Assembly: GCA_966250295.1 (NCBI GenBank)
Contig: CBINGR010000003.1
Location: 1-32,000 of the forward strand
Reading direction: 5' to 3'
DNA: 32,000 bases
DNA from: an uncultured Akkermansia sp.
GTDB taxonomy: Bacteria; Verrucomicrobiota; Verrucomicrobiia; Opitutales; Opitutaceae
The translations under genes and the position numbers were made by a program. The notes under the pieces are model-generated. The model was not told the DNA's origin, made no database searches, and saw only the letters and a list, made by a program, of their open reading frames with translations. Position 1 is the first letter of the stretch; every line of letters begins with the position of its first letter. Below are positions 1,480-20,958 of the stretch, in pieces.

Positions 1480-4400
1480 TCAGGGCAGGGTGGCGCGGAC
1501 GCGGAGGAACTGGCGTGGAGAAACATCCAGGGACAGGGCGGAACGGGCCACGACATCCTCGAGACCGTTGCCCAGCGGGCTGGCGGAGACCTCGAGTGCG
1601 GCGGAGGGTGCGGCGAAATCGGGCAGCTCCGCGACCTGCGCCGCGACGGTCACGCCGCCGCGCACCTGGCGGCGCGGGTAGCGTATGGCGGGGTAGACCT
1701 TGTTCTCCACTGTCACGGTGAGCGCCTCGATGGGCGAGGCGCCTGCGGTGCCCGGTTCGGTGCCGAGAACGAATTCGAGCAGGCTGGCGGAGCCATCCCC
1801 ATCGGGATCGGCCAGGGCGGAGGCGGTATTGGCCGCGAAGCCCCGCGCGACCAGCCAGTCGTAGAGCGGCGCCACGGCCGTGCCGTCGTCGGTGACGGTG
1901 AACTGGAGGCTGGTGCCGGTAAGCGTGAACTGGCCCTTCGCATAACCGAGGCCGGTGAAGCCGAAGTCGGACGCGGCGAAGGTAGTGGAGCCGAAAGTGA
2001 GGAGCGTGTAGGGCGTGCTGGCGGCGAGCGTGCCGGGAGTGAAGGCGAAGACGAAGGCTCCCGAGCCGTCCTTGGTGAGAGCGCCGGTGATGGCCAGACG
2101 ATCGCCGGCTGAGCCCAGATTGAAGGCCAGGCGACCTCCCGCGCTCCAGCGGGCGCCGCCGGTGGCGGAAAGGGTGCCGGCGGAGGCGCCGCCAGGGGAG
2201 ACCGTGCCGCCGGACAGCAGGGTGAGGGGCTTGGCGGTGGCGCCGGTGCCGGTGAGGGTGCCGCCGCTGGCGACTGCGAGCGAGCCGCCGGAGGCGAGCG
2301 AGCCGTTGAGGTGGAGCGTGCCGGCGCTCACTGTCACGGCGCCGGTGAAGGTGTTGGCCGCGGAAAGGGTGAGGGTGCCGCCGCCGGTCTTGGCGAAACC
2401 GCCCGTCCCGGAGAGCACGCCGCCGAGCGTGAAGTCGAAAGCGGAGCCGGCGGGGTTGCCGGCGCGGAGGAAGGTGTTCGAGGAGGTGCCGGCGAGGACG
2501 AGAGGGTGGGTGGTGCTCCAGTTCGCCAGCGCGCCGAGGGTGCCGCTGTTCAGCGTGATCGTGCTGGCCAGGCCGTTCGTGCCGTTTTTCACGATGCCGC
2601 CGGCCCCCAGGCTGAGTTCCCCGTTGGTGACGGACACCGTGGCGGAGCCGGCGGTGACGGCGGAATCGTAGCCGAGGGTGAGCTTGGCGAGGCTGGCGGT
2701 GCCGCCGGTGATGAGGAGCTTGGAGACGTTGTTCGTGTTGGTGCCGCGATTGCGCGACATGACCAGGCCGTTGGTCGCGCCGGTGACGGCGAGTTCGCCG
2801 CCGCTGAGGTAGATGACGCCGCCGCGGCTGGCGGTGCTTTGGTAGCCGTTATGGAGCGTGTCGGTGACGGTGAGCTTGCCGCCGGAAACCGTCATGCCGC
2901 CCCAGGAGTCGCTGGTGCCGAGGCCGATGTTGGCGAAGGTGGCCGTGCCGCCGCTGACGAGGACGCCGGTGCCCGAGGTCTGGCCCTCGGAGTCGCCGCT
3001 GCGGGGGAAGTTCATGTCCTTGCCGGTGACGGTGCCGCCGGTGACCTTGAAGAAACTGTTCCGGGTATTGGAGGGGACGATGTTCTGGAAACTGGCGGTG
3101 CCGCCGCTGACGATGACGCCGGTGCCGGTGCCCGAGGTCCAGGAGACGTTGCCCGCCGTGGTGAAGGCGCCGCCGGCGACGCGGAGCTGCTGCGAGGTGG
3201 AGATGGTGACCGAGGAGGGCGAGAGCGTGCCGCCGGGGCCGACCTGCACGATGCCTTTGCCGATGGTGAGGGTGCCGGTGATGGAATTGGGGCGATTGAG
3301 CTCGAGGGTGCCGATGCCGGTTTTGGTGAAACCGGAGGAGCCGGCGAGCGCGACGGCCAGATGGTGCGGATAGGCGGCCGCGGCGGGCACGTCCGTGGTG
3401 TCGCCCGCCTGCGTACTGGCGGCGTCCACCTGAATGGTGCCGGCAAGGGCGATGGTGCGGCCCGATACGCCGCCGTCGGAAATGGTCCAGCCCGCGGGCG
3501 TGGAGTAGTCGGCGTCGCCGAAAACCAGGCGGCCGAGGGTCCGGCTCGAATCGAGGATGACCGAGGTGTCGGCGGTGAGGTCGCGCAGGCTGAAATCGGC
3601 GGTCGCGCCGCTGCCGCCGGCGATCAGGCCCCCGTCCCAGTTGGTGGAATCGCTCCAGAGTTCGCCGTCGTCGGTGGAGATCCAGACGGCACTCCCGGCG
3701 AGGCGCACGGTGTAAGTCTGGCCGGAGGTGTAAGCGCCGGAGACGGCGTTGCCCGCGAGGTCGACGATGCCGGTGCCGCTGGCGTCGAGGTTGAGGCGAA
3801 CCGTGCCGTCGCCGGAGAGGTTGGTGACGGTGACGTCGTAAACGGTGGAACTGACGGCGGCCAGCGCGCCCAGGGTGCCAGCGGTGCCGGACAGGGTGAG
3901 GTTGAAATCGGCGGCGTCCACGCCGGTGACAGGTTCGGCGAAGGTAACGCGGAAGACGACGGTGCCGCCGTTGGTGGAGTAGGTGGCGGGGTTGAAACGT
4001 TTGATCGACGCGATGGCGGGCGCGGTGGTGTCGACGGTGACGATGAAGGCGGCGGAGGCCGGGCTGGCGGTGCCGCCTTGGGAGGCGGTGGCGGTGAAGG
4101 CGTGGCTTCCGGCGGGGAGGGCCGTACCGTAGGCGAAGGAAAACGCCCCGCCGGCGGTCGCGGTGGCGGAGCCGATTACGCCGACGCCGGCGCGGGTGAG
4201 GGACACGGTGGAGCCGGCGGGGGCGGTGCCGGAGAGCGTGAGGGTGGTGTCGTTGGTCAGCCGGTCGGAGGCGGAGGCGCCCGAGTCGGTCGAGATCGCC
4301 GTGAAGGCCGGCGGCGCGATGGCGGTGTTCACGACGTAGGCGCTGGAGACCGGACCGGGGTTGCCGGCGAGATCCGTGGCGGTGGCGGTGAACGAGTGCG

Positions 4401-6150
4401 TGCCGGCCGCGAGCGGCGTGCCTGTGTAGCTGGCGGTCCAGTTGCCGAGCTCGTCGGCGGTGGCGGTGCCGACGGTGGAGCCGTCGAGGAGAACGCTCAC
4501 GGCGTCTCCGGGGATGGCGGTGCCGGAGATGGCGAGGCTGGGGGAGAGCGAGACGCTGGTGACCGCCGGTGCCGGCGCGGCGACCGTATCGACGCGGACG
4601 ACGAAGGCGGGCGAGGGCGGAGTGAGCACGGAGGCGACCGTGGCGGTGGCCTGAAAGGCGTAAGTGCGGTCGGCCAGGGTGGCGCCGGTGTAATCGTAGG
4701 TCCAATGGCCGGTGCCGTCGGCGGTGACGGTGCCGAGCAGGCCGGTGTCCGCGCGGGAAATCGCGACGGAGGCGCCGGCGGGGGCGGTGCCTCGGAGGAC
4801 GAGGGTTTGGTCGGAAGTGATGCGATCCGCGCCGGAGGAGCCGGTGTCGGTGGTGATGTCGTCGAGGGTGGCGCCGGGGATGCCGCCGGGGACGAGGGCG
4901 TTCACGTAGCGCTCGATGTTGAGGTAGCCGTCGGCGCCGAGCGTGGTGGCGTCGGCCACGGCGGGGTTGGTGCCGGCGGCCTGTTCCCACCAGTCAGGCA
5001 TGCCGTCGCCGTCGGCATCGGAGGCCTTGAGGCCGGAGGCGACGGTACCGATGCCGCCCATCTCGGCTTCGTCGTAGATGAAGACGCCGGCCGCGCCGTA
5101 GGAGCGCGCCTCGGCCACGACGTAGTCGTCGGTGCGGTCGCGGCGGTGCGAGGCGCCGGCGTGGTCGAGCACCCAGGCGAGGGCGGCGGGCGCGGTGAGC
5201 TGGGTGGTGGGCGCGGGGTAGGCGAAGCGGGTGCCGACGAGCTGGAGAGTGGAGAAGCTGGAGTTGGTCACGGCCACCCCATCGAGGATGCCGTCGAGGT
5301 CGAGGTCCTGGAGGTTGCCGGAGTGGAAGAGCCGGTAGTTGGTGTTGCCGCTCTTGAAGGGCGAGGTGCCGGCGCCGGACTCGGGGCCGCCGATGAAGTA
5401 GCAGTTGATGACGTTGGCGTAGGAATCGCCGGCGGAGTCGCCGGCGGGGATGTAGCCGCCGCCGCCGCCCCAGTTGTAGACGACGTTGTTGATGTAGTCG
5501 TTCACGCCCTTGACCTTGGGATTGCGCATCCAGTTGTCGGCGTAGAGCGTGCGGAAGATGCTCACGCCGCCGGAGGTCTGCATGAGACCTCCCCCGGAGT
5601 GGATGCGCAGGCCCTGGGCGATGAGGCAGTCCTGGAGGGTGATGCGGATGGCATCGTCGCCGCTGATGGAGAAGGTCTCGTCGCGTCCCCAGGAAGCGGA
5701 TACGTGGTCGAAAATCAGGTCGCTGCCGTTGGCGAGGCCGACGGCGTCCGCGCCGTCGTCGCCGTCGATGCCCATGCGGAAGCGCATGTAGCGGCAGATG
5801 GTGTTGTCGGCGCCGGAGAAGGACACCCGGTTGCCGTAGACGGTGATGCCGCCGCCGGGGGCGGTCTGGCCGGCGATGGTGAGGCCGGAGGCGAAGACGA
5901 GGGGGGTATTGATCCGGATGATGCCGCCCACGTCGAAGACGATCACGCGGTTGGAGGTGCCGACGCCGGTGCGCAGCGACCCGGCGCCTGAGTCGTTGAG
6001 ATTGGTGACATGGTAGACCGTCGGGCTGGCAGAGGCGCGGGCACCTTTGGCGTTGGCACCGAAGCCTTCCGCGCCGGGAAAGGCAGGCAGGGCAAAGGCA
6101 GTGGCTGCGGCCGACAGGAAGGCCAGCACGGAGATCGGGGCGACTCGCAT
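1480..6150 (-). CDS. giant secreted multidomain protein (1556 aa): pectate-lyase-like beta-helix, Ig-like repeats, autotransporter-associated beta-strand (PATR) repeats
   Basis: Signal peptide MRVAPISVLAFLSAAATAFA. The N-terminal ~340 aa carry PL1-like motifs (LIFDHVSASWGRDE and NWMRNPKVKG, i.e. RxPxxR-like). A DADGDGMPDWWE calcium-type motif follows. Repeated Ig-like units have the form ITSDQTLVLRGTAPAGASV / LTNDTTLTLSGTAPAGSTV. The long Gly/Thr-rich region has GGGTLTLSAANTFTGAVTVSAGTLHLNG-type PATR repeats. The C-terminal region contains DPDGDGSASLLEFVLGTEP. Confidence 0.9.
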   Translation of the reverse strand: MRVAPISVLAFLSAAATAFALPAFPGAEGFGANAKGARASASPTVYHVTNLNDSGAGSLRTGVGTSNRVIVFDVGGIIRINTPLVFASGLTIAGQTAPGGGITVYGNRVSFSGADNTICRYMRFRMGIDGDDGADAVGLANGSDLIFDHVSASWGRDETFSISGDDAIRITLQDCLIAQGLRIHSGGGLMQTSGGVSIFRTLYADNWMRNPKVKGVNDYINNVVYNWGGGGGYIPAGDSAGDSYANVINCYFIGGPESGAGTSPFKSGNTNYRLFHSGNLQDLDLDGILDGVAVTNSSFSTLQLVGTRFAYPAPTTQLTAPAALAWVLDHAGASHRRDRTDDYVVAEARSYGAAGVFIYDEAEMGGIGTVASGLKASDADGDGMPDWWEQAAGTNPAVADATTLGADGYLNIERYVNALVPGGIPGATLDDITTDTGSSGADRITSDQTLVLRGTAPAGASVAISRADTGLLGTVTADGTGHWTYDYTGATLADRTYAFQATATVASVLTPPSPAFVVRVDTVAAPAPAVTSVSLSPSLAISGTAIPGDAVSVLLDGSTVGTATADELGNWTASYTGTPLAAGTHSFTATATDLAGNPGPVSSAYVVNTAIAPPAFTAISTDSGASASDRLTNDTTLTLSGTAPAGSTVSLTRAGVGVIGSATATAGGAFSFAYGTALPAGSHAFTATASQGGTASPASAAFIVTVDTTAPAIASIKRFNPATYSTNGGTVVFRVTFAEPVTGVDAADFNLTLSGTAGTLGALAAVSSTVYDVTVTNLSGDGTVRLNLDASGTGIVDLAGNAVSGAYTSGQTYTVRLAGSAVWISTDDGELWSDSTNWDGGLIAGGSGATADFSLRDLTADTSVILDSSRTLGRLVFGDADYSTPAGWTISDGGVSGRTIALAGTIQVDAASTQAGDTTDVPAAAAYPHHLAVALAGSSGFTKTGIGTLELNRPNSITGTLTIGKGIVQVGPGGTLSPSSVTISTSQQLRVAGGAFTTAGNVSWTSGTGTGVIVSGGTASFQNIVPSNTRNSFFKVTGGTVTGKDMNFPRSGDSEGQTSGTGVLVSGGTATFANIGLGTSDSWGGMTVSGGKLTVTDTLHNGYQSTASRGGVIYLSGGELAVTGATNGLVMSRNRGTNTNNVSKLLITGGTASLAKLTLGYDSAVTAGSATVSVTNGELSLGAGGIVKNGTNGLASTITLNSGTLGALANWSTTHPLVLAGTSSNTFLRAGNPAGSAFDFTLGGVLSGTGGFAKTGGGTLTLSAANTFTGAVTVSAGTLHLNGSLASGGSLAVASGGTLTGTGATAKPLTLLSGGTVSPGGASAGTLSATGGARWSAGGRLAFNLGSAGDRLAITGALTKDGSGAFVFAFTPGTLAASTPYTLLTFGSTTFAASDFGFTGLGYAKGQFTLTGTSLQFTVTDDGTAVAPLYDWLVARGFAANTASALADPDGDGSASLLEFVLGTEPGTAGASPIEALTVTVENKVYPAIRYPRRQVRGGVTVAAQVAELPDFAAPSAALEVSASPLGNGLEDVVARSALSLDVSPRQFLRVRATLP

Positions 6151-6304
6151 AGGGGGCCGACGATTAGGAAGATGACTGCGGGAAGGAGCAGTCCCCCGGG
6201 GATTCGGACAGTCATATCCGAGTGTATTTGCGTAGCGGCGGTGGGACCTTGCGGGGAAGCCCTGCGATCTTGCGCGGTCGCGGGCGGGGGCCTAGGCCTC
6301 GCCG

Positions 6305-7045
6305 ATGTTTCCGACCCACAATGGCTCCGTCCGCATCTTCCGCTTCTCCGGCATCGACGTGTTTCTGCACTGGTCGTGGTTCGCGGCGCTGTACTATTTT
6401 TCGCAGCCCGGAGGCGCCCATTACACCTCGCCTTGGTGGAACCTGGCGGAGTGTCTCGTCCTGTTTCTGATCGTGTTGTTGCACGAGTTTGGCCATTCGC
6501 TGGCCTGCCGCTCGACCGGAGGCCGCGCGGAGCAGATCGTGCTCTGGCCGTTGGGTGGCGTCGCCTACGTGGCCCCGCCGCAGCGGCCGGGAGCACAGTT
6601 GTGGAGCATCGCGGCGGGGCCGCTGGTCAATGCCGCCCTCGTGCCGGTGTTTTACCTCGGCCTGAGGGTCGTGGCAGGCCGCGGTCTGGATGAGGCGTTT
6701 CCCGATGCTTATAAATTCCTGGAGCAGATTCAGAACATCAACCTGGCGCTTCTGATCTTCAATTTGCTGCCGGTCTATCCGCTCGATGGCGGGCAGATCC
6801 TGCGCTCGGTGCTTTGGTATTTCCTGGGGCCGGCAACGAGCCTGTTGGTCGCCGCGTGCATCGGTTTCGCCGGCGGAATCGCGCTGGTCGCCTATGGGCT
6901 GAGTACGGGCTCGTTCTATCTGGCGATCATCGCCGGCTTTTTGTTTCTCAACTGCGTGGGAGGCTTTCGTCACGCCCGCGCGCTTCGCGCCCGTTTGCGG
7001 GAGGAGGGCCGCGTCGACGGCGGCCCGCCTTCGTTTTCGGCCTGA
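6305..7045 (+). CDS. site-2 protease family (peptidase M50) integral-membrane zinc metalloprotease
   Basis: HExxH motif in LLHEFGHSLA and the second M50 motif NLLPVYPLDGGQILRS. Multiple hydrophobic helices are present. It is divergent from the giant gene. Confidence 0.9.
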   Translation: MFPTHNGSVRIFRFSGIDVFLHWSWFAALYYFSQPGGAHYTSPWWNLAECLVLFLIVLLHEFGHSLACRSTGGRAEQIVLWPLGGVAYVAPPQRPGAQLWSIAAGPLVNAALVPVFYLGLRVVAGRGLDEAFPDAYKFLEQIQNINLALLIFNLLPVYPLDGGQILRSVLWYFLGPATSLLVAACIGFAGGIALVAYGLSTGSFYLAIIAGFLFLNCVGGFRHARALRARLREEGRVDGGPPSFSA

Positions 7046-7197
7046 GCGGGCTGCGTCTGCATCCCGTTTACAGAGCCGCCTTGCCGGTAAACACCCATGA
7101 GCGCCGGCGATTCAGTCCTTGAGTAGCCAGGGGGCATGGCCTAGCCGATGGGCCTTTGTTTTGACGAATTTTTGCAAACAGCTCACCTCGTAAATCC

Positions 7198-9003
7198 ATG
7201 CAACTTCTTCAGCCCAGCAGGTCAGCTCGCAAGGCGAAGCGAAAACGGCTGTTCGTGATCTGGGGCGCGTTGCTGGCGCTGGCGGCGGGGGGGCTGGTGG
7301 CGAAGGATCCCTTGATGCGGCGCTACCGTTACTGGAAACAGGCCCGGGCACTGGAGCAGGCTCGCGATTTCGTGGCGAACCGCGATGCCTTGAACGCGCA
7401 ACTGGCGCTGGACGTCGCGCTCAAGGCGGTGCCGAGCGATGCGGAGACGATCCGGGTCGCCGCCGATATTCTCGAGCAGGTGGGGGCGCCGCAGGCCATG
7501 CGCCTGCGCCGGGCGGTCACGCAACTGTTGCCCGACTCGGCGGAAGATTCGGCCAAGCTGATTCTGAGTTGCCTGCGTTTTCGTGATTTCAATGCGGCCA
7601 AGGATGCGCTCTCCGGCGCCTCTCCGGCGCTGTCCGAGCAATTGCCCATGATGAAAGCCGCGCTGGCCTACGCGCTCGCCACCGCGGACTCGGCGGTGGC
7701 CGACGCCCTCCTGGCCGAGCTCCGGCGGCGTCTGCCCGACGATGCCGACTTGGTGTATGCCCAGATGCTCCTGCACCTCCGGCATCCCGACGAGGCGAAA
7801 CGCGCCGAGGCCCGCCGGCAACTCGATGAAATCGCGCGAACTCATCCCGAACGGGCGGCGCAGGTGAACCGCGAACTCGCGGGAGTCGCGCTTCAGGCCC
7901 GCGATTACGAGGAAGCCCGCAGGCGTTTCGACGCCGTTCTGGCGGATCCCGGAGCGACGCTCAACGACCGCCTGCAGAAAGCCAACCTGGCCCTCCTCGT
8001 CGATCACGTCCCCTTCGAAACCGTTTATGCCGAGCTGGCTCCCCTGGCGGTCAAAAGTCCGGCCGACGCGGCTCAGCTCGCCCGCTGGCTGCAGGTCCAG
8101 ACCCGCACCGTCGAGGCGGAACGGCTGCTGGCGTCCCTGCCGGAGGAGTTTCGCAAGGAGAGGGAAGTGCGCGCCGTCCAGGCCGATCTGGCCGCCCAGG
8201 CCAAGGACTGGGATCGCCTCGCTTCGATGATCGAGGCGGGGGCCTGGGGCGACATCCCGGCGGAGAGCGTGCGCCTTGCGATGTCGGCGCGGGTGGTCGG
8301 CACGCAGGGCAACACCGCGCTGCGGCTCGAGATCTGGGACGCCGCGATCCAGGCGGCCGGGCCCAGCATTTCGGCGCTGGGGGTCTTGCAACGGCTGGCC
8401 AGCCTGTGGGAATGGAGCAAAGAGGCCGAAAACACACTCTGGACACTGGCGCGTGCCTTTCCCGACCAGACCTGGGCGCACCAGGCCTTGTTCAACCTCT
8501 ACAAGGAACAGAAAAACACCGCCGGCATGCGCAATGTCCTCGTGGCGCTGCGCCAATCCAACGGTGCCGTCCCCCGTTACCAGCACGACTGGGCGCTGCT
8601 CAGCCTGCTTCGCGATCCCAGCCTGAGCTGGAACCCGGCCAAGGAGACCATGAAGACCCTCCACGAGCAGGATCCGGGCAATGCGACCTATGCGACGGGC
8701 TACGCTTTTGCCCTGGCCCAGTCGGACCGGTTCAGGGAGGCGCTGACCGTCGCGCTGACCATTTCGGCCGAGGACCGGGAGTTTCCGCCTCGATTGCCCT
8801 ACATGGCCTACGTTCAGGCCATGGCGGGGAAGCGGGAGGAGGCGCTGCGCCTTCTGGCCCTCGCGGAAAAGGCCGGGGTGGACTATCTGCCGGAAGAACG
8901 AAAACTGCTTTCCCAGGCGGGCGAAGCCGCGATGCGCCAGGCCGGCTCGCCTCGCCCCAAGCGTGAGGAAAAACCCGCCGGCGCTCCCGCGGTTTCCAAA
9001 TGA
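7198..9003 (+). CDS. single-pass membrane-anchored helical-repeat (TPR-like) protein
   Basis: Basic N-terminus followed by a TM segment (KRKRLFVIWGALLALAAGGLVA). The remaining ~560 aa are Ala/Leu/Arg-rich helical repeats. Its stop overlaps the exosortase start (ATGA at 9000-9003). The TPR assignment is by composition and periodicity only. Confidence 0.7.
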   Translation: MQLLQPSRSARKAKRKRLFVIWGALLALAAGGLVAKDPLMRRYRYWKQARALEQARDFVANRDALNAQLALDVALKAVPSDAETIRVAADILEQVGAPQAMRLRRAVTQLLPDSAEDSAKLILSCLRFRDFNAAKDALSGASPALSEQLPMMKAALAYALATADSAVADALLAELRRRLPDDADLVYAQMLLHLRHPDEAKRAEARRQLDEIARTHPERAAQVNRELAGVALQARDYEEARRRFDAVLADPGATLNDRLQKANLALLVDHVPFETVYAELAPLAVKSPADAAQLARWLQVQTRTVEAERLLASLPEEFRKEREVRAVQADLAAQAKDWDRLASMIEAGAWGDIPAESVRLAMSARVVGTQGNTALRLEIWDAAIQAAGPSISALGVLQRLASLWEWSKEAENTLWTLARAFPDQTWAHQALFNLYKEQKNTAGMRNVLVALRQSNGAVPRYQHDWALLSLLRDPSLSWNPAKETMKTLHEQDPGNATYATGYAFALAQSDRFREALTVALTISAEDREFPPRLPYMAYVQAMAGKREEALRLLALAEKAGVDYLPEERKLLSQAGEAAMRQAGSPRPKREEKPAGAPAVSK

Positions 9004-10553
9004 GCGCGGTCGCGACTCCGCGATCCTCGTGGCTGGGAGGGGTGGCCCTGCTCCTCCTCGCGGTCCTGCTGCTGGTGCCGCTGGCCGAGGTGTGGCGTCA
9101 GTCGCCCGACTTGCGGCATGGCTGGGCGGCGGTCCTGCTGATGGCCTATTTGTGGTGGGAGCGTTGGACGGAGCGCCCTGCCCCCGTCCGGCGCGAAGGC
9201 CGTCTGCCCGCGACCTGGTGGGTGCTGGCCTTGCTTTCCGCGGTACTGGCGCTGCCGCTGCGCCTGTTGCTGGTGCCCTTCTCGCTGTGGACGACGGCGC
9301 TGTGGGCCTACACTTCTATCCTGCTCGCGGTCGCCGCGGCCGCCGCCTGGCTGCGCGCCGGCTGGCCGGGCGTGCGCTGGCTGCTGGCGCCTTGCCTGAT
9401 CCTCGCCAGCGCGCTGCCCTGGCCCGCCAGCATCGAGCAGACCGTGATTTTCCCTTTGCGCGAGACCATGGCCGCGGCGGCGGCGGAGGTGAGCAATCTC
9501 TTCGGCCGGCCCGCGCTGGCGGTGGGCACGACCGTGCGGCTGGCTTCCGGCTGGGTAGGCATCGATGAGGCCTGCGGCGGCATCCGCTCCCTGCAGTCCT
9601 GTGTGATGATCGCCTTGTTTTTCGGGGAATGGTTCCGCTTTGCCTGGCGTCGCCGCCTGTTCCTCCTGGCCAGTGGGACGGCGGCGGCCCTGGTGGGAAA
9701 TTTTTCCCGGGTGTTGTTCCTTTCCCTGGTCGCCGGCCGCGGCGGCCAGGAGGCGGTGCACGGCTGGCACGATGCCGCGGGATGGGTGGCGCTGGCCTTG
9801 AGCCTCGCCGTCACCGGCTCGATCGCCTGCCGCTGGGCGGGATGGCGGTGGCCCGCCCTTGCTCCGGCGCCCGCAAACCGGGTGGCCCTGCCTTCGCCCG
9901 CGGCCGCCTGGCTCGCGGCGGTCGTGGCTTTGCTGGCCTTGAACGAGGCTGCCACGCGCGCTTGGTTCGCCCGCGGGGACCGGGAACGCAGTCTCATCCC
10001 TCAGTGGTCGGTTGCGTTCCCCGAGTCGCATTGGAGCTTCATGAAGGACCCGCTCGGTGAATTTGCCGCCGAATTGCTCCGGCCCGATTTTTATTCGGCC
10101 GGACATTGGCAGGAGGGGCGCGACGTCGAGGTGGCTTCCTACTATATCGAATGGCATCGCGGTCAGGTCGCCCGTTTCCTGCCCTTTGCCCACAACCCCA
10201 CGGTTTGTCTGCCGATGGCGGGATGCGAAATGGACGAATCCCTGGGCGAGCTTTCGGTGCCGTGGAACGGGCTGACGATTCCGTTTCGTGCCTACCGTTT
10301 TATAAACCGGGGCGAGCCCATGTGGGTCGCTTTTACGATCTGGGATCCCTCCCGCGGCCAGCCTCTAGGTGCTCCGGACGAGGACTATTCCCTGGGGAAA
10401 GCCTTGCGCCAACGTTGGCGCGAAGTCGCGGAACGACGAGCCGACCAGCCCGCTCAACTGCTGACCCTTTCACTCCGGAATATCAAAGGCGATGCCAAGG
10501 ACGCCTTGCAACTACGCCTAGTAAACCTGCTTAGCGCTCCGAAGGCGCCGTAA
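9000..10553 (+). CDS. exosortase (EpsH/Xrt family) fused to an EpsI-like C-terminal domain
   Basis: Polytopic N-terminal half carries the exosortase catalytic signature: Cys in IDEACGGIRS (TGC at 9573-9575), Arg in GNFSR (9708-9710) and His in GWHDAAGW (9768-9770). The C-terminal ~200 aa after a further TM segment resemble EpsI (YYIEWHRG...FAHNPTVCLPMAGCE). Confidence 0.85.
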   Translation: MSAVATPRSSWLGGVALLLLAVLLLVPLAEVWRQSPDLRHGWAAVLLMAYLWWERWTERPAPVRREGRLPATWWVLALLSAVLALPLRLLLVPFSLWTTALWAYTSILLAVAAAAAWLRAGWPGVRWLLAPCLILASALPWPASIEQTVIFPLRETMAAAAAEVSNLFGRPALAVGTTVRLASGWVGIDEACGGIRSLQSCVMIALFFGEWFRFAWRRRLFLLASGTAAALVGNFSRVLFLSLVAGRGGQEAVHGWHDAAGWVALALSLAVTGSIACRWAGWRWPALAPAPANRVALPSPAAAWLAAVVALLALNEAATRAWFARGDRERSLIPQWSVAFPESHWSFMKDPLGEFAAELLRPDFYSAGHWQEGRDVEVASYYIEWHRGQVARFLPFAHNPTVCLPMAGCEMDESLGELSVPWNGLTIPFRAYRFINRGEPMWVAFTIWDPSRGQPLGAPDEDYSLGKALRQRWREVAERRADQPAQLLTLSLRNIKGDAKDALQLRLVNLLSAPKAP

Positions 10554-10620
10554 AAAAAGCGTTTCTACGCGAAATCCGAACTTGCCCAGCCCCGGCCTAT
10601 TTCTAGGGTTTTTACCTGAC

Positions 10621-11346
10621 ATGAACACGTCCGCCAAAACTATCTCGCTTATCGCCGCGACTTTGCTCGCGTTTATTACCCCAGCCAAAGCCCAGCTCCA
10701 AACTTTCGAAACCGTCAGCGTCTGGGCCGGAAGCAACTTCACGTTCGGGACCGGCTCCACCATGGGGCAGACCTTTTCCAACGTCTATGCGGTCAAGAGC
10801 ATGACCTACAACTTTTTCGCCACCGGCACGGCGGCGGCTACAACGCTTACCGCCACCTTCGGTCAGTGGAACGGCGCCGGCTTTATCGGCGGCACCACGG
10901 TCAGCTTCGGCACGATCAACATCCCCGCTTCCAATTCGGGTTTCTGGTCGCCCCTCAACACCACTTACGGCTTGGCGAACAACATCAACACCTTCGCCTA
11001 TACCTTGGATCTGGCGACGCTCAGCTCCGGCCTGATCGACACGACCTACGGCTACCTGACGAACCCGGGCAGCACCTACGCCCTGATGCTGACCAACACC
11101 ACGGGTAGCGCCACCAATCTCGGTCTCGGCCTCACGAATACCGACGCTTTCCCCTTCGGCGCCACCAACTTCGGTTTCAACGACTGGGCCTTCGCGCAAC
11201 TCGTGGTTGCCCCGACCAACCCGGTTCCCGAGTCCAGCACGGTCGCTTCCGTCGCCACCGGGCTGCTCGTCGCCGGTCTCGTGGGCTATCGCGTCCGCCA
11301 GCGTCGCAACTCTGCCGGGGCCGTGGCTCCCCTGGCCGCCGCCTAA
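10621..11346 (+). CDS. secreted Thr/Gly/Asn-rich protein with a PEP-CTERM-type sorting signal (VPES variant)
   Basis: ATG 10621 gives the signal peptide MNTSAKTISLIAATLLAFITPAKAQ. The C-terminus reads PVPESST (nt 11221-11241), then the TM stretch VASVATGLLVAGLVGY, then the basic cluster RVRQRR. This is the tripartite exosortase recognition architecture. The 10582 start in the ORF track only adds a non-signal-like extension. Confidence 0.8.
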   Translation: MNTSAKTISLIAATLLAFITPAKAQLQTFETVSVWAGSNFTFGTGSTMGQTFSNVYAVKSMTYNFFATGTAAATTLTATFGQWNGAGFIGGTTVSFGTINIPASNSGFWSPLNTTYGLANNINTFAYTLDLATLSSGLIDTTYGYLTNPGSTYALMLTNTTGSATNLGLGLTNTDAFPFGATNFGFNDWAFAQLVVAPTNPVPESSTVASVATGLLVAGLVGYRVRQRRNSAGAVAPLAAA

Positions 11347-11378
11347 GCCGGTTTCGCTTTTAAAAACGTGTTCGAAAA

Positions 11379-11412
11379 GGTCCGCGCGAAAGCGCGGGCC
11401 TTTTTCTTTTTT
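11379..11412 (+). terminator. rho-independent terminator after the PEP-CTERM gene
   Basis: A 9-bp GC stem, ggtccgcgc (11379-11387) / gcgcgggcc (11392-11400) with one G-U pair, closes a GAAA tetraloop. It is followed by tttttctttttt (11401-11412) and preceded by an A-run. Confidence 0.8.
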
Positions 11413-11427
11413 GGCGACCGACCATTG

Positions 11428-11520
11428 GTCCGGGGAGCGCCGGCCTCCCGCCGAGGACTTTCCGAAGGGGCTTTGACGAGACGCCCGAGCCGGCCCGCGG
11501 GACGCGGGCGCTCCCCGGAC
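11428..11520. repeat. GC-rich palindromic element: perfect 14-bp inverted repeat with a 65-nt spacer
   Basis: gtccggggagcgcc (11428-11441) is the exact reverse complement of ggcgctccccggac (11507-11520). The right arm context cgcgggcgctccccg recurs at 19253-19267. Confidence 0.7.
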
Positions 11521-11590
11521 CTTCACCGGAAAAAGTATCAAAGCATAACGGAACTGGTGTAAGCCCGCCCCGGGAGCTTCACTTTGCGTC

Positions 11591-12613
11591 GTGATCGCCT
11601 CCGTAGCATTCCGGAACTTCAAGGCCCTGCGCTCGGCGCGGCTGGAACTGGCGCCGTTCAACCTCGTCATCGGGCCCAACGGCGCGGGCAAGACCAGCCT
11701 CATTCAAGCCTTGCTCCGCCTTCGCACGCTCGCGCGCCTGCCCCTGCGCGAGCCGCGGCCCGAATCGGAGCGTCTGCCCGAGTCGGCCGAGATCACCTTC
11801 AATTTCACTCCGCCTCACGACGGGCTGGAGGCCGTCCTGGCCTGCGTGGACGAAACGACCTGCGATCTCCTGCAGGTTGTGCCGCTGTCGCGCGGGGACG
11901 GCTCCCTGGACTGGGCCGGGCTGCGCGCGCGCCTGCTGACGGTGCGCGGCTATCTCCTGGACCACCGCGCCATCGCCGCGCCGGTGTATCCGGTTTCCTC
12001 CGACGAGCTCGCGTCCGACGGCAGCAACCTCGCCGCCCGCCTCGCCGCCCTGCACGCGCGCGCCCCCGCCGCCTACGCCGGCCTGCACGAGGAACTGCTG
12101 CGCCTTTTCCCCGAATACTCCGCGCTGGTGCTCGAGCCCGCGCAGGGCAGCTTCGCCCTCCGGCTGGCCGGGCCGGACGAGGACGTGATCGGCGACGGCG
12201 GCCTGGTGCCCGCGGCGGATCTTTCCCAAGGCACGCTCTACGCTCTCGCCCTGCTCGCCCTCGCCCACGATCCCACGCCGCCGGCGGTGGTCTGTATCGA
12301 GGAGGTCGACCGCGGCATCCACCCGCGCCTCCTGCGCGAGATCCGCGACGTGCTCTACCGGCTCAGCTACCCGGCCGACTACGGCCACGACCGGGCGCCG
12401 GTGCAGGTGATCGCCACCACGCACTCGCCGCTGCTGCTCGACCTGTTTCGCGACCATCCCGAGGAGGTCGTGATCGCGGAAAAGAGCGGACGCGCGGCGA
12501 CCTTTTCCCGTTTGTCCGACCGGGCGGATATCGCCGATCTCCTGGCCGAGGGCGGCAGTCTTGGCGACCTCTGGTATTCCGGCATCCTGGGAGGCGTGCC
12601 CGAGGAATCATGA
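11591..12613 (+). CDS. ABC/SMC-type ATPase (AAA_21/AAA_15-like), 340 aa
   Basis: The GTG start gives MIASVAFRNFKAL, the typical N-terminus of this ATPase class. Motifs seen: Walker A GPNGAGKT (11672-11695), ABC signature-like LSQGT (12221-12235), Walker B VVCIEEVD (12287-12310) and H-loop ATTHSP (12413-12430). Confidence 0.85.
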   Translation: MIASVAFRNFKALRSARLELAPFNLVIGPNGAGKTSLIQALLRLRTLARLPLREPRPESERLPESAEITFNFTPPHDGLEAVLACVDETTCDLLQVVPLSRGDGSLDWAGLRARLLTVRGYLLDHRAIAAPVYPVSSDELASDGSNLAARLAALHARAPAAYAGLHEELLRLFPEYSALVLEPAQGSFALRLAGPDEDVIGDGGLVPAADLSQGTLYALALLALAHDPTPPAVVCIEEVDRGIHPRLLREIRDVLYRLSYPADYGHDRAPVQVIATTHSPLLLDLFRDHPEEVVIAEKSGRAATFSRLSDRADIADLLAEGGSLGDLWYSGILGGVPEES

Positions 12614-13278
12614 CGCCCGCCGCCCCCGCGCGTCCGCTTCGGCTCGCCCTCCTCGGGGAATCGCTGGTGGACGAGTCTGCCCTCGCCATCCTGGTCCAGG
12701 CCGTACTCGGCGAACCCTTCGTCCGCGTGCAGCCGAATCTTCGCGCCCGCGGCTGGCCCTCGGTGCTCCAGATCCTGCCCGCCATCGCCCGCCACCTGCA
12801 TTTCAACACCGACGCCGACGGCCTGGTCGTGCTGGTCGATGCCGACGACACGGCGGTCCACACCGCCACGCACGAGGCGCCCGGCTATTTTCACCCGCGC
12901 TGCCGGCTCTGCCAGTTGCGCGCCGCGTTTCGCCGCGCGACCCGCAAGCTCCCTCCCGCCCGCGGCCGCGACCGCGTGTTGCGTGCCATCGGCCTCGCCG
13001 TGCCCGCGGCCGAGGCCTGGTATCTCTGCGGCCTCGACGGCGCGGTGGGCGAGGAGGCCTGGCTCGCCGGCCAGCTCGCGGGAAACCCGCCCTACACGCG
13101 CCGCGAACTCAAGGCCCGCGTCTACGGCACCGAGCGGCCCAACCTGCCCCAGGCGGTCGCCCACGCCACCGCTGCCGCCCGCCGCCATGCCGCTGACCTG
13201 CGCCGGTTGGAATTCGATTTTCCGGGTTTCGCCGCCCTGGCCGCCGATTTGCGAAGTTGGAATAGAATAAACGGTTGA
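12610..13278 (+). CDS. small TOPRIM-like protein (DUF4276/RloB-like), putative nuclease partner of the ATPase, 222 aa
   Basis: Its ATG overlaps the ATPase stop (ATGA at 12610-12613). It has an N-terminal strand plus Glu (LALLGESLVDE, E17 at 12658-12660), a hydrophobic strand plus acidic cluster (LVVLVDADD, 12838-12849) and a later AAEAWYL motif. This E...DxD...E order is as in TOPRIM/DUF4276. The fold call is by motif only. Confidence 0.6.
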   Translation: MTPAAPARPLRLALLGESLVDESALAILVQAVLGEPFVRVQPNLRARGWPSVLQILPAIARHLHFNTDADGLVVLVDADDTAVHTATHEAPGYFHPRCRLCQLRAAFRRATRKLPPARGRDRVLRAIGLAVPAAEAWYLCGLDGAVGEEAWLAGQLAGNPPYTRRELKARVYGTERPNLPQAVAHATAAARRHAADLRRLEFDFPGFAALAADLRSWNRING

Positions 13279-13301
13279 CATATCAACTAATCGGGAGCGG
13301 C

Positions 13302-13766
13302 ATGCCCGGCATGTATTCCGCCAACGCCCACCGGCTGATTCACGACATCGTCGCGACGGCCGATCTTTTCCTGCGCGAGAGCACCCGGCTTTTCCGGCCG
13401 CACGGGCTCACCGCTCCCCAGTTCAACGTGCTCAACATCCTCGGCCTGCGCGGCGAAAATGCCGGGCTCAGCCAGCGCGAACTGGCCGACCTGCTGGTCG
13501 TGGACCGCAGCAACGTCACCGGCCTGATCGACCGCATGGAAACGGCCGGCTGGGTGCGCCGCGCCGACGATCCCGCCGACCGTCGCGTGTACCGGGTGCA
13601 ACTGACCACCGCCGGCCGGCGGCTTTGGAACAAGGTGGCTCCGGGCTACGCCGATGTCGTGGCGCAGGTGACGGCGCGGCTCGGCGAGAAGCAGATGGCG
13701 GACGCCATCGCGCTGCTCGCCATTCTCCAGGAAGACGCGACGCGCTGGACCGAGCCTGAGCTTTGA
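13302..13766 (+). CDS. MarR-family transcriptional regulator
   Basis: Winged-helix core LTAPQFNVLNILG...LSQRELADLLVVDRSNVTGLIDRMETAGWVRRADDPADRRVYRVQLTTAGRRL. The start is uncertain: ATG 13302 is preferred, with 13311 ATG or 13275 TTG as alternatives. Confidence 0.85.
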   Translation: MPGMYSANAHRLIHDIVATADLFLRESTRLFRPHGLTAPQFNVLNILGLRGENAGLSQRELADLLVVDRSNVTGLIDRMETAGWVRRADDPADRRVYRVQLTTAGRRLWNKVAPGYADVVAQVTARLGEKQMADAIALLAILQEDATRWTEPEL

Positions 13767-19345: not shown

Positions 19346-20341
19346 ATGCGCATCGACTGCCACGTTCACGCCGTCGGCACCGGCAAAAACGGCTCCGGCT
19401 GCTGGTATCGGCCGCGCGGGTTCACGCGCATCGGCGAGCCGATCTTGCTGCGTTCCATGGGCCTGCCGGCCTCGGCCCTGCAGGAGGATTTCGAGGCGGT
19501 CTACGAGCGGGCCTTGCTCGCGCAAGTCCGCGCCTCCGGGCTCGATGCGGCCGTGATCCTCGCCCACGAGGAGCCCTACCGCGACGACGGCACGCTGATC
19601 GCCGACACGGGCTCCTTCTACGTGCCCAACGATTACGTCCTCGGGCTGGCCCGCCGGCATTCCGAGTTTCTGCCTGCGGTTTCGATTCATCCCGCGCGGC
19701 GCGACGCCCTGGACGAGTTGGAACGCTGCCTGGCGGACGGCGCCGTCATGCTCAAGTGCCTCCCGAATTGCCAGAACATGGACTGGAACGAGCGCCGCTA
19801 CCGGCCGTTCCTGGAACGCATGGCCGAGGCGGGACTTATCCTGCTGGCGCATACCGGCAGCGAGCGGACCATGCCGGTGCTGCGTCCCGATCTTGCCAGC
19901 CCCCGCGTGCTGACGCAGGCGCTGGAGGTGGGGGTGACCTGCATTGCGGCACATTGCGGCACGGGCATGATCGCGCTCGACCCGGACTATTTCGGCGAGT
20001 TTGTCGCGATGACAAAACGCTACCCGCGGCTTTACGGCGACAACAGCGCCCTGGCCGGCCTGAGCCTCCGTTTCCGGCCCTGGCAGCTGCGGGCGATCCG
20101 CGAGGACGAGGAGCTGGCGGCGCGTATCCTCTACGGCAGCGATTTGCCCGTGCCGAGCAGCGGCCTGATAATGGCGGCCCTAGGTATGATCGGATGGAGC
20201 GATTATGCGGCCTCGCGCCGGCACACCGTATCGATGGCCCGCGACTTGATGCTGAAGCGCGCACTGGGCTTTCCCGAAACCAGCGAAACGCGGCTCGCGG
20301 GCCTGCTCAGGCCTACGCCGGGTCTCGCGAGACCTAGGTGA
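19346..20341 (+). CDS. amidohydrolase-superfamily (TIM-barrel metal-dependent hydrolase) protein
   Basis: N-terminal MRIDCHVHAV (HxH metal motif), internal LLAHTGSE and CIAAHCG, and C-terminal YGSDLP (Asp ligand region). Confidence 0.7.
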   Translation: MRIDCHVHAVGTGKNGSGCWYRPRGFTRIGEPILLRSMGLPASALQEDFEAVYERALLAQVRASGLDAAVILAHEEPYRDDGTLIADTGSFYVPNDYVLGLARRHSEFLPAVSIHPARRDALDELERCLADGAVMLKCLPNCQNMDWNERRYRPFLERMAEAGLILLAHTGSERTMPVLRPDLASPRVLTQALEVGVTCIAAHCGTGMIALDPDYFGEFVAMTKRYPRLYGDNSALAGLSLRFRPWQLRAIREDEELAARILYGSDLPVPSSGLIMAALGMIGWSDYAASRRHTVSMARDLMLKRALGFPETSETRLAGLLRPTPGLARPR

Positions 20342-20430
20342 GCGGCAGGAGACGGTCTACCGGGAATCGCCGGCTCCGCTCTTGTTGCATTTCGCATCCG
20401 GCTTACTTTGCTGCTCCGCCGTATCATCGC

Positions 20431-20958
20431 ATGGCCACGCCCACCGTCATCCCCGTTACCGTCAAGGGCGTCATGCCCACCGCCAATGGTTGCGCCGTTT
20501 TCCTCGGCGACGACGCCAAGACCTTCGTGATCTACGTCGATCACGCGGTGGGCAACGCGATCCAGATGTCGCTGGACGGCGTGAAGAAGGACCGCCCGCT
20601 CACTCACGATCTCATCGGCCACATCCTGGCCGGCCTGGGCGCCACACTCGAGCACGTGGTTATCAACGACGTCAACGAGGGTACCTTTTACGCGCGCATT
20701 CTCATCAAGATGCGCAACGAGCTCGGTCAGAAGATCGTCGAACTCGACGCTCGTCCGAGCGACAGCACCGTACTCGCCCTCTCTCATAAGCGGCCCATCC
20801 TGGTCGCCAGGAAAGTTTACGATGCCGTGGAGGACATGTCGGAAATCCTCGAGCGCGTGCTGCGCCAGCAGGCCGAGGCCGCCGAGCAGTCGACGGAGGA
20901 GGATGAGGACGATCCGGACGCGGACCCCGACGTCGACGAGGACGAGGACAAAAAGTAA
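20431..20958 (+). CDS. bifunctional nuclease family protein (BFN/DUF151) with acidic C-terminal tail
   Basis: From ATG 20431: VIPVTVKGVMPTANGCAVFLGDD...FVIYVDHAVGNAI...DRPLTHDLI...ARPSDSTVLAL matches the DUF151 layout. The tail reads EEDEDDPDADPDVDEDEDKK. The GTG 20338 extension is Arg/Cys-rich and unlike this family. Confidence 0.75.
   Translation: MATPTVIPVTVKGVMPTANGCAVFLGDDAKTFVIYVDHAVGNAIQMSLDGVKKDRPLTHDLIGHILAGLGATLEHVVINDVNEGTFYARILIKMRNELGQKIVELDARPSDSTVLALSHKRPILVARKVYDAVEDMSEILERVLRQQAEAAEQSTEEDEDDPDADPDVDEDEDKK

Follow-up and report, generated by a model that had tools for sequence, protein, structure and literature searches.

What does a gene pair do when its homology is of the defence type and its evolution of the housekeeping type? 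This contrast within one and the same pair is the main interest of a locus from an uncultured Akkermansia sp. of the Opitutaceae (assembly GCA_966250295.1, contig CBINGR010000003.1, positions 1 to 32,000; this whole stretch of 32,000 nucleotides is referred to as the window). The locus consists of two adjacent open reading frames (ORFs) on the + strand: ORF1 (11591-12613, GTG start, 340 aa) encodes an ATP-binding cassette (ABC)-type ATPase of the AAA_21 family, and ORF2 (12610-13278, ATG start, 222 aa) encodes a DUF4276-like TOPRIM-type partner. Pairs of an ABC ATPase with a TOPRIM protein (OLD, Gabija, PARIS, AbiL, Mad3-Mad4, HEC-01) are treated as mobile immune modules, and an earlier note on the same DNA had proposed a split-OLD-like abortive-infection or anti-mobile-element system. 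The pair was classified here as a divergent subfamily of the DUF4276 branch, seen here only in bacteria of the Planctomycetes-Verrucomicrobia-Chlamydiae (PVC) group, with a zinc-site-like insertion and core-gene-like inheritance. Its architecture and biochemical class, an ABC ATPase with a TOPRIM-type partner, are assigned with high confidence. The preferred reading of its role is that a conflict or defence module like HEC-01/Mad3-Mad4 has been fixed in Opitutaceae and other PVC bacteria, where it is passed on vertically rather than moving about on mobile islands; the chances of this reading are put at about even.

The ABC-type ATPase

ORF1 matched Pfam AAA_21 (7.6e-31; 108.7 bits against a gathering cutoff of 27) and AAA_15 (3.5e-16). 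Among the PADLOC models it matched HEC-01A (1.3e-39, PDLC04183, together with several further HEC-01A models) and an AriA-labelled AAA_21 model (1.2e-30), with further matches to AbiLi (2e-18), mad3 (3e-17), PDC-M07A, PDC-M25A and Old. The closest sequence-profile match in the PDB was the OLD nuclease 6p74 (TsOLD, 5.5e-9). The AlphaFold model of ORF1 had a pLDDT (predicted local distance difference test) value of 87.4 and a predicted template modelling (pTM) score of 0.87, and a Foldseek search with this model retrieved PtuA (from Septu as well as retron complexes), the heads of Rad50 and Thermus OLD with E values of ∼1e-11 to 1e-10 and a query TM score of ∼0.5. Pfam, PADLOC, the PDB profile search and Foldseek thus bear out the suggestion that the first gene encodes an ABC/AAA_21 ATPase of the OLD/PtuA/AriA kind. 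ORF1 is a compact ABC ATPase with an OLD/PtuA/AriA-like head and without long coiled coils.

Motif conservation was judged in ATPase homologues of 63-85% identity, 27 in all. In the Walker A motif GPNGAGKT (aa 28-35, 11672-11695, + strand), G28, N30, G31, G33 and K34 are invariant in 27/27. The ABC signature-like LSQGT (aa 211-215, 12221-12235, +) is equally fixed at Q213, G214 and T215, the Walker B motif VVCIEEVD (aa 233-240, 12287-12310, +), which is followed by a D-loop, at C235, E237, E238 and D240, and the H-loop ATTHSP (aa 275-280, 12413-12430, +) at T276, T277, H278, S279 and P280, again in all 27. Every motif that the earlier note had listed in the two proteins was recovered at the same residues and is conserved among homologues.

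The region between Walker A and the signature (aa 51-210, 11741-12220, +) is occupied by variable inserts. When conservation was scored per 10 residues across 81 sequences, this region gave mostly 0.24-0.61 (0.65 and 0.73 for the blocks aa 121-130 and 141-150) versus 0.74-0.92 for the core motif blocks. The divergence of ORF1 is focused on two insert regions, aa 51-110 and 131-210, and the inserts are a candidate sensing or partner-binding surface.

Both ends of ORF1 are conserved. The GTGATCGCC start is shared among relatives. The C-terminal tail (aa 321-340, 12551-12610, GSLGDLWYSGILGGVPEE) is highly conserved, with G325, W328, G331 and G334-P337 invariant, and was modelled at low confidence (pLDDT ∼55 for the last ten residues). 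The tail could be a docking peptide for the ORF2 partner; part of its conservation could also be due to the ribosome-binding site of ORF2 that is embedded in it.

The TOPRIM-type partner

Direct scans of ORF2 against Pfam, NCBIfam, PHROGs and PADLOC, and a phmmer search against the PDB, returned nothing significant. The sole PADLOC match was PDC-M25B (E = 0.018), no HEC-01B match was seen at E values up to 1, and neither ORF2 nor 22 close homologues matched Pfam DUF4276 (PF14103) at E values up to 1. A search of the PDB with the ORF2 family profile gave only chance matches to Arf GTPases (E ≥0.26), which were discarded. The family itself is large, with 1462 matches in a 90%-clustered database and 615 clusters at 50% identity (E ≤0.001), and a homologue 68% identical to ORF2 is labelled as a DUF4276 family protein in UniRef. 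Weak matches appeared among 47 distant relatives of 31-61% identity: in Pfam to DUF4276 (5/47, best E 0.0031) and RloB (5/47, best 0.0052), and in PADLOC to HEC-01B (19/47, best 1e-5), mad4 (10/47, 6e-6), PDC-M38B (8/47) and AbiLii (1/47, 0.027). Of the Pfam families that the earlier note had named for the pair, AAA_21 and AAA_15 were matched by ORF1, and the thresholds of DUF4276, RloB and DUF4435 were not reached by ORF2.

For a profile-profile comparison, a set of genuine PF14103 proteins was seeded from the DUF4276 genes annotated beside the closest plasmid-borne relatives of ORF1. Alignment of the ORF2 family profile with this DUF4276 profile by hhalign gave a probability of 93.2% and an E value of 2.9e-7 over 176 columns, which is nearly the full length of both. 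The alignment placed E17 of ORF2 on the Glu of LVEE, VVVDSD on VVVDRDD and AVPAIEAWY on IEELEAWY. By this alignment ORF2 is a remote homologue of DUF4276.

Seven residues (E17, D77, P132, E135, W137, K168 and F207) are invariant in the 47 relatives, and S18, D21, R99 and E148 are nearly so. E17 (12658-12660, +), in the GES motif at aa 16-18, is the putative catalytic Glu after strand 1 and was present in 47/47. D77-A-D79-D80 (12838-12849, +), in LVVLVDADD at aa 72-80, forms a DxD-type motif after strand 3. In the AAEAW motif (aa 133-137, 13006-13020, +), E135 follows strand 4 and, together with W137, aligns with the ExEAW motif of DUF4276. The AlphaFold model of ORF2 (pLDDT 87.3, pTM 0.85) comprises an alpha/beta domain at the N terminus (aa 10-140) and a helical domain at the C terminus (aa 148-221). 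Its elements run in the order expected: strand, Glu, helix, short strand, helix, strand, DxD, insertion, helix, strand, Glu. E17 comes after strand 11-15, and D77-x-D79 stands at the end of strand 71-77.

The hallmark of TOPRIM domains is a conserved Glu on the loop between strand 1 and helix 1 with a DxD motif after strand 3, and both DUF4276 and RloB have been assigned to the TOPRIM superfamily with these catalytic positions (PMC12065111). ORF2 has the same residues, E17 and D77 in 47/47 relatives and Asp or Asn at position 79, and the hhalign register to DUF4276 confirms that the TOPRIM-type Glu and DxD of the second protein sit where the earlier note had placed them. Its expectation of a TOPRIM or nuclease fold was qualified by Foldseek, though not refuted: against the PDB and BFVD the ORF2 model retrieved generic Rossmann-like folds at the top, with a best E of 0.014 and TM scores ≤0.33. 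Because Foldseek gave no TOPRIM match, the TOPRIM assignment rests on profile homology and motif placement. ORF2 is probably a metal-dependent nuclease.

ORF2 carries a His/Cys cluster, H84-x3-H88-x6-H95-x2-C98-x2-C101 (12859-12912, +), which lies between strand 3 and helix 3 and includes HPRCRLC at aa 95-101. All five His/Cys residues are invariant within the close Opitutaceae set. Among the 47 distant relatives H84 was retained in 37, H88 in 27, C98 in 38, C101 in 36 and the intervening R99 in 45. The cluster is absent from genuine DUF4276 proteins and is a probable zinc site inserted in the TOPRIM-type domain.

Linkage, distribution and inheritance

The two genes are joined by a translational coupling site (12602-12613, +), in which a Shine-Dalgarno-like GAGGAA (12602-12607) lies within the final codons of ORF1 and is followed by ATGA. 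The stop/start overlap reported by the earlier note was confirmed at 12610-12613, where the ATG of ORF2 (12610-12612) overlaps the TGA of ORF1 (12611-12613). The 4-nt overlap is present in 43 of ∼88 related loci and the remainder are spaced by 1-200 nt. In all related loci the two are separate ORFs, never fused.

With each GTDB species represented by a single genome, a scan queried with alignment A3, and so biased toward Opitutaceae, found an ORF2 relative encoded in 316 species genomes. Carriers of the best 80 loci include Lacunisphaera, Rariglobus, Nibricoccus, Oleiharenicola, Cephaloticoccus, Opitutus, Didemnitutus and strain IMCC26134. In 78 of the best 80 loci the ATPase gene is immediately upstream and on the same strand, and the pair is present in 79 if a locus at a contig edge, where the tail of the ATPase is still present, is counted (L060). 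The remaining locus, L066, holds a true orphan partner without an ATPase upstream. This partner (4208-4834, 65% identity) is preceded by a 914-aa ORF on the opposite strand that ends ∼200 nt before it; the orphan could reflect a genuine loss of the ATPase or an assembly artefact of the metagenome-assembled genome (MAG). A Planctomycetota MAG and a 50%-identity relative also have the pair with the 4-nt overlap, in both cases among housekeeping genes. In the searches run, the ORF2 family occurred only in Verrucomicrobiota (Opitutaceae/Opitutales) and Planctomycetota, i.e. PVC bacteria.

Across the best 80 loci, identity to the window proteins was 60-87% for the partner and 46-83% for the ATPase. 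ORF2 is uniformly conserved along its length, unlike the insert-focused variation of ORF1. Pairwise distances of ORF1 and ORF2 were correlated (r = 0.78), as were those of each protein with the neighbouring MarR regulator where one is present (r = 0.76-0.87). In Opitutaceae the pair shows the pattern of a locus that is fixed in the lineage and inherited vertically. Genuine DUF4276 proteins were found at 65-85% identity in Deinococcota, Planctomycetota, Cyanobacteria, Acidobacteriota and Pseudomonadota, and the closest plasmid-borne ORF1 relatives adjoin annotated DUF4276 genes within operons of the restriction-modification (RM)/Hma type.

Comparison with known systems

HEC-01 consists of the ABC ATPase HEC-01A and the TOPRIM protein HEC-01B and was found embedded in Hma systems (Payne et al., bioRxiv 10.1101/2024.01.29.577857). 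The window pair resembles it in having two adjacent same-strand genes, an ABC ATPase followed by a TOPRIM-type partner of ∼200 aa, in the match of ORF1 to HEC-01A and in the weak matches of 19 distant ORF2 relatives to HEC-01B. It differs in that ORF2 itself lacks a HEC-01B match, ORF1 is ∼60 aa shorter than the HEC-01A profiles, and the pair stands alone among housekeeping genes whereas HEC-01 sits in Hma/RM operons.

The methylation-associated defence system (MADS) has eight genes; mad3 and mad4 are required for resistance and are accessory in the detection model, mad6-8 are mandatory, and the system is known from Proteobacteria, Actinobacteria and Nostocales (MADS preprint). Mad3-Mad4 has the same domain pair, an ABC ATPase with DUF4276, and the mad3 and mad4 hidden Markov models matched ORF1 and ten ORF2 relatives, respectively, as given above. 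The score of ORF1 against NCBIfam MADS3 (NF047739) was however only 74.9 bits versus a cutoff of 420, and no mad1, mad2 or mad5-8 gene was found among the neighbours scanned.

DUF4276 (PF14103) genes stand beside AAA_21 genes in RM/Hma operons, for example those of Meiothermus (pMtWR-220) and Aeromonas (pHX3), with the ATPase likewise first and the stop and start overlapping or abutting. The Glu, DxD and ExEAW-type motifs are common to DUF4276 and ORF2, and their C-terminal helical domains are similar. ORF2 differs in falling below the Pfam threshold, in its His/Cys insertion and in lacking one invariant Glu, and its family was seen here only in PVC bacteria whereas DUF4276 spans many phyla.

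PARIS is likewise split into an ABC ATPase (AriA) and a TOPRIM effector (AriB, a DUF4435 nuclease), and the AriA-labelled model matched ORF1. The faster, insert-focused divergence of ORF1 relative to ORF2 parallels the AriA/AriB pattern (PMC11464382). AriA, at 55 kDa, is larger than the 340-aa ORF1, ORF2 had no match to DUF4435 or AriB in Pfam or PADLOC, and PARIS is often phage- or satellite-borne, unlike the window pair. AbiL and MADS3-4 have been placed alongside OLD, Gabija and PARIS (PMC11464382); ORF2 itself matched neither RloB nor AbiLii. OLD (class 1 TsOLD, 6p74; Gabija GajA) and PtuA are the closest solved structures to ORF1 in fold and sequence. In OLD, however, the ATPase and TOPRIM domains share one chain rather than two ORFs, and the ORF2 model did not retrieve OLD TOPRIM structures. 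PtuA of Septu pairs with an HNH nuclease (PtuB), and ORF2 had no HNH match.

RecF-RecR is a chromosomal, vertically inherited pair for recombinational repair. It resembles the window pair in its working parts only, an ABC ATPase of ∼340-360 aa with a TOPRIM protein of ∼200 aa that has a Cys-rich metal site. ORF1 scored 32 bits against recF (TIGR00611; cutoff 172), over its N-terminal region only, and ORF2 had no similarity to RecR in NCBIfam. Membership of the pair in RecF/RecR was rejected on these scores. The zinc finger also precedes the TOPRIM domain in RecR, whereas the cluster of ORF2 is inserted inside it.

Formally the pair is a member of none of these: DUF4276 (at the Pfam threshold), HEC-01B, MADS, PARIS, AbiL, OLD (by its fused architecture), Septu or RecF/RecR. 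It would nevertheless work as they do, and its homology to the DUF4276 branch is demonstrable. The class of an ABC ATPase with a TOPRIM/DUF4276 protein is already known from HEC-01 and Mad3-Mad4; the pair itself is uncharacterised and is missed by current partner models. The view in the earlier note that ATPase and DUF4276-like pairs are functionally uncharacterised as a class needs qualifying, since HEC-01 has been phage-tested and Mad3-Mad4 is required for MADS resistance.

Genomic neighbourhood

The genes identified across the window are housekeeping or envelope genes. They encode an Ig-like surface protein, an M50 peptidase, a TPR protein, an exosortase, a PEP-CTERM-like protein, MarR, a DUF2339 membrane protein, an acyltransferase/AMP-binding enzyme, an amidohydrolase, a BFN-domain protein, Dus, CysC/CysD/CysN-like proteins and transporter subunits. 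Eight contexts of related pairs were annotated with Pfam and all were housekeeping. Two of the related loci (L004, L012) keep the left flank of the window (exosortase/PEP-CTERM) and two others (L002, L089) keep the right flank (MarR, membrane protein, acyltransferase/AMP-binding, Amidohydro_2), in each case with the opposite side rearranged. This is how a long-resident locus behaves. MarR lies downstream of the pair in ∼25/80 species loci. In other loci the surroundings hold pseudopilins, ribosomal proteins L36/L31, cytochrome c assembly genes, MreBCD/PBP2, phosphoglycerate mutase and triose-phosphate isomerase. The commonest Pfam families in the 121 nearest neighbours from 45 loci were AMP-binding/Acyltransferase, MarR, aldo-keto reductase and transporters.

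An RM system adjoins the pair in the Opitutaceae MAG 5N013 (L038), where a divergent type I operon of hsdR-like, hsdM (with NPPF) and hsdS genes is found at 3229-8900. In this subgroup the ATPase is ∼47% and the partner ∼67% identical to that of the window. One of three mad2 matches among the neighbours is probably the HsdM of this operon. PADLOC matches to mad3, mad8 and AriA in the neighbours of four further loci (L032, L045, L064, L073; mad3 E down to 2e-33) were judged to be probable cross-hits, because their number is that of the ABC-transporter ATP-binding proteins in the set, also four, and these are its sole proteins with an ABC-type Walker A. The transporter proteins carry a GPSGCGKT Walker A with ABC_tran and TOBE_2 domains, and show no BLASTP resemblance to ORF1 or to the plasmid ATPases. 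If they are cross-hits to ABC transporters, single defence-model matches near such loci need care.

Three further parts of the window were annotated. Within 9000-11346 an exosortase gene (EpsH, 2.2e-41) is followed by a gene for a 254-aa protein without a Pfam match, the end of which (VPESS, then a hydrophobic stretch, then RVRQRR) resembles a PEP-CTERM-type sorting signal; the guanine plus cytosine (GC) content of this gene is 0.575-0.62, clearly below the 0.68-0.75 of its surroundings. At 20338-20958, ∼7 kb downstream of the pair and beyond the genes for the acyltransferase/AMP-binding enzyme and the amidohydrolase, lies a gene for a 206-aa protein that has a bifunctional nuclease domain (BFN_dom, 3.9e-26). 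The gene at 1480-6291 on the - strand has a very high third-position GC (0.90); its 1603-aa product, which contains Ig-like (Big_13, Big_6) and PATR repeats, is probably a large protein of the surface or autotransporter-like type.

Boundaries and composition of the locus

The upstream PEP-CTERM-like gene ends in an intrinsic terminator (11374-11405, +) with a 14-bp stem (8 GC pairs), a 4-nt loop and then CTTTTTT, which sets the 5' boundary of the transcription unit of the pair. In the 245-nt gap upstream of ORF1 lies a long imperfect hairpin or inverted repeat (11427-11521, +) with 25-nt arms that are 92% complementary and a 45-nt loop; the region 11410-11595 folds at -88 kcal/mol (z = -2.9). 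No second copy of the hairpin arm was found in the window or in 93 related loci, and the region upstream of ORF1 that holds it is unconserved in relatives and had no Rfam match above threshold. In view of this lack of Rfam matches, other copies and conservation, it was dropped as a candidate regulatory or repeat element, and it is probably outside the two-gene module.

Downstream, a MarR-family regulator (13302-13766, +; Pfam MarR_2, 2e-16) is a frequent syntenic neighbour, which does not imply that it belongs to the module. TTGACATATCAA (13275-13301), an imperfect palindrome with a perfect TTGACA hexamer, spans the 23 nt that separate the ORF2 stop from the MarR ATG; it may be a MarR operator or promoter element. 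A TTG start for MarR at 13275 is probably too far upstream, and the gene caller places the start at 13302.

Of the insulation of the pair described in the earlier note, the transcriptional insulation upstream was borne out by the terminator; the inverted repeat upstream and MarR downstream were also present as described. Its observation that there is neither a GC anomaly nor an integrase also held. The GC content of the pair (0.70-0.73) matches that of most of the flanks (0.68-0.75) and so shows no deviation, in a window with 66% GC overall, and no integrase is among the genes identified in the window.

Proposed function and alternative explanations

The defensive reading is drawn from the family homology of ORF1 and ORF2, the linkage of the pair, the plasmid relatives in RM/Hma operons, the divergence focused on the ATPase and the precedent of mad3/mad4. 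By analogy with PARIS, OLD/Gabija, Septu and Mad3-Mad4, the ATPase would form ATP-sandwich dimers or higher oligomers that hold or gate the partner. A nucleic-acid or protein cue would be sensed through the variable inserts and would alter the nucleotide state, and the changed state would license the TOPRIM domain of the partner to cleave DNA or RNA in a metal-dependent way. The His/Cys insertion may serve as a zinc-stabilised nucleic-acid-binding element.

Several observations speak against a defensive role. When HEC-01 was tested alone, it gave no protection against any phage tried (10.1101/2024.01.29.577857). None of the ten nearest neighbours in the window matched a PADLOC model at 1e-5, and the RM operon of L038 is the only defence neighbour in the 45 loci, so the enrichment in defence islands that the earlier note had set beforehand as a test was essentially not seen. 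The best 80 loci from the 316 species genomes (60-87% identity) all belong to Opitutaceae/Opitutales, and no ORF2 relative was found in IMG/VR, INPHARED phages or PLSDB plasmids; with the housekeeping contexts, these findings depart from what is generic for a mobile defence island. ORF2 is more conserved than the flanking housekeeping genes, and such slow evolution is atypical for an immune effector. In the partner itself, D79 is Asp in 37 of the 47 relatives and Asn in the other 10, the neighbouring invariant Glu of DUF4276 has an Ala in its place here, and no TOPRIM or nuclease structure was retrieved with the ORF2 model at E ≤0.001 (Foldseek, PDB and BFVD). The vertical, lineage-fixed pattern is a poor fit to a typical mobile abortive-infection module. 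Of the split-OLD-like abortive-infection or anti-mobile-element system first proposed, the ABC/TOPRIM homology stands, whereas the housekeeping context, vertical inheritance and absence of a mobility signal tell against it. Class 1 OLD genes, however, are not found in defence islands either (PMC10568477), and a housekeeping setting is therefore not enough by itself to exclude defence.

Much of the same evidence would suit a housekeeping pair for nucleic-acid maintenance, domesticated or housekeeping from the start, that processes DNA ends or gaps or RNA in the manner of RecF-RecR or SbcC-SbcD, with the TOPRIM/zinc protein binding or cutting a cellular substrate under ATP control. The breadth of carriage (316 species genomes), the restriction of the best 80 loci to Opitutaceae/Opitutales with 79 of them paired, and the overlapping pair among housekeeping genes in the Planctomycetota MAG and the 50%-identity relative all point this way. 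So do the conserved synteny with either the exosortase/PEP-CTERM flank or the MarR-to-Amidohydro_2 flank, the covariation with MarR, a partner more conserved than its neighbours and the absence of ORF2 relatives from the virus and plasmid collections searched. RecR carries a zinc finger next to its TOPRIM domain, which the His/Cys cluster of ORF2 recalls. All detectable homology, however, is to conflict families (HEC-01A/B, AriA, AbiLi, mad3/mad4, PtuA, OLD) and not to RecF/RecR, the OLD precedent shows that residence outside defence islands is not peculiar to housekeeping genes, and the prevalence within the family is given as raw counts, uncorrected for genome completeness. A housekeeping role is accordingly regarded as possible, with the odds against it. 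The same tentative standing is given to a broader formulation, in which the pair is a core, vertically inherited ABC-ATPase/TOPRIM-zinc module of OLD/HEC-01 stock that was either domesticated for an essential or near-essential RecFR- or SbcCD-like nucleic-acid transaction or hard-wired as a non-mobile immune sensor.

Two further explanations concern the partner and the linkage. ORF2 might be a non-catalytic TOPRIM-like adaptor, a RecR-like binder of nucleic acid or metal that recruits or regulates the ATPase. The Glu-to-Ala replacement, the Asn at position 79 in 10/47 relatives and the lack of a nuclease structure from Foldseek are in its favour. This is nevertheless considered unlikely, as E17, D77 and E135 are invariant even at 31-61% identity and S18 and D21 nearly so, which is the conservation to be expected where a metal site is retained. 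The pair might also be addictive and selfish in the manner of a toxin-antitoxin system, with the ATPase restraining a toxic nuclease so that loss is lethal and the host gains nothing. Selfish modules are normally mobile and patchy, whereas this pair is syntenic, absent from the plasmids and phages searched and coevolving with its neighbours, and in L066 an orphan partner exists without its ATPase. The tight linkage and translational coupling fit such a scheme, and toxicity inside ATPase-containing modules is suggested by MADS, in which mad5 can be deleted only if mad2 or mad3 is also deleted (MADS preprint). A selfish pair is nevertheless considered quite improbable, the least credible of the explanations considered here.

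Significance

The reading of the pair as a fixed conflict or defence module and its housekeeping alternative lead to different consequences. To our knowledge no mechanism is known for the DUF4276 branch, and its sole stand-alone test was negative. Whichever role applies, the ORF2 family merits a profile model of its own, as the partner models of Pfam and PADLOC miss it. If the pair is defensive, modules of this class can turn into stable core genes that are invisible to island-based discovery. If it is a housekeeping pair, it would be a case of domestication and would offer a tractable route to what DUF4276-type TOPRIM proteins cut. Either fate, domestication or a fixed innate sensor, would if true be unusual for this class of module.

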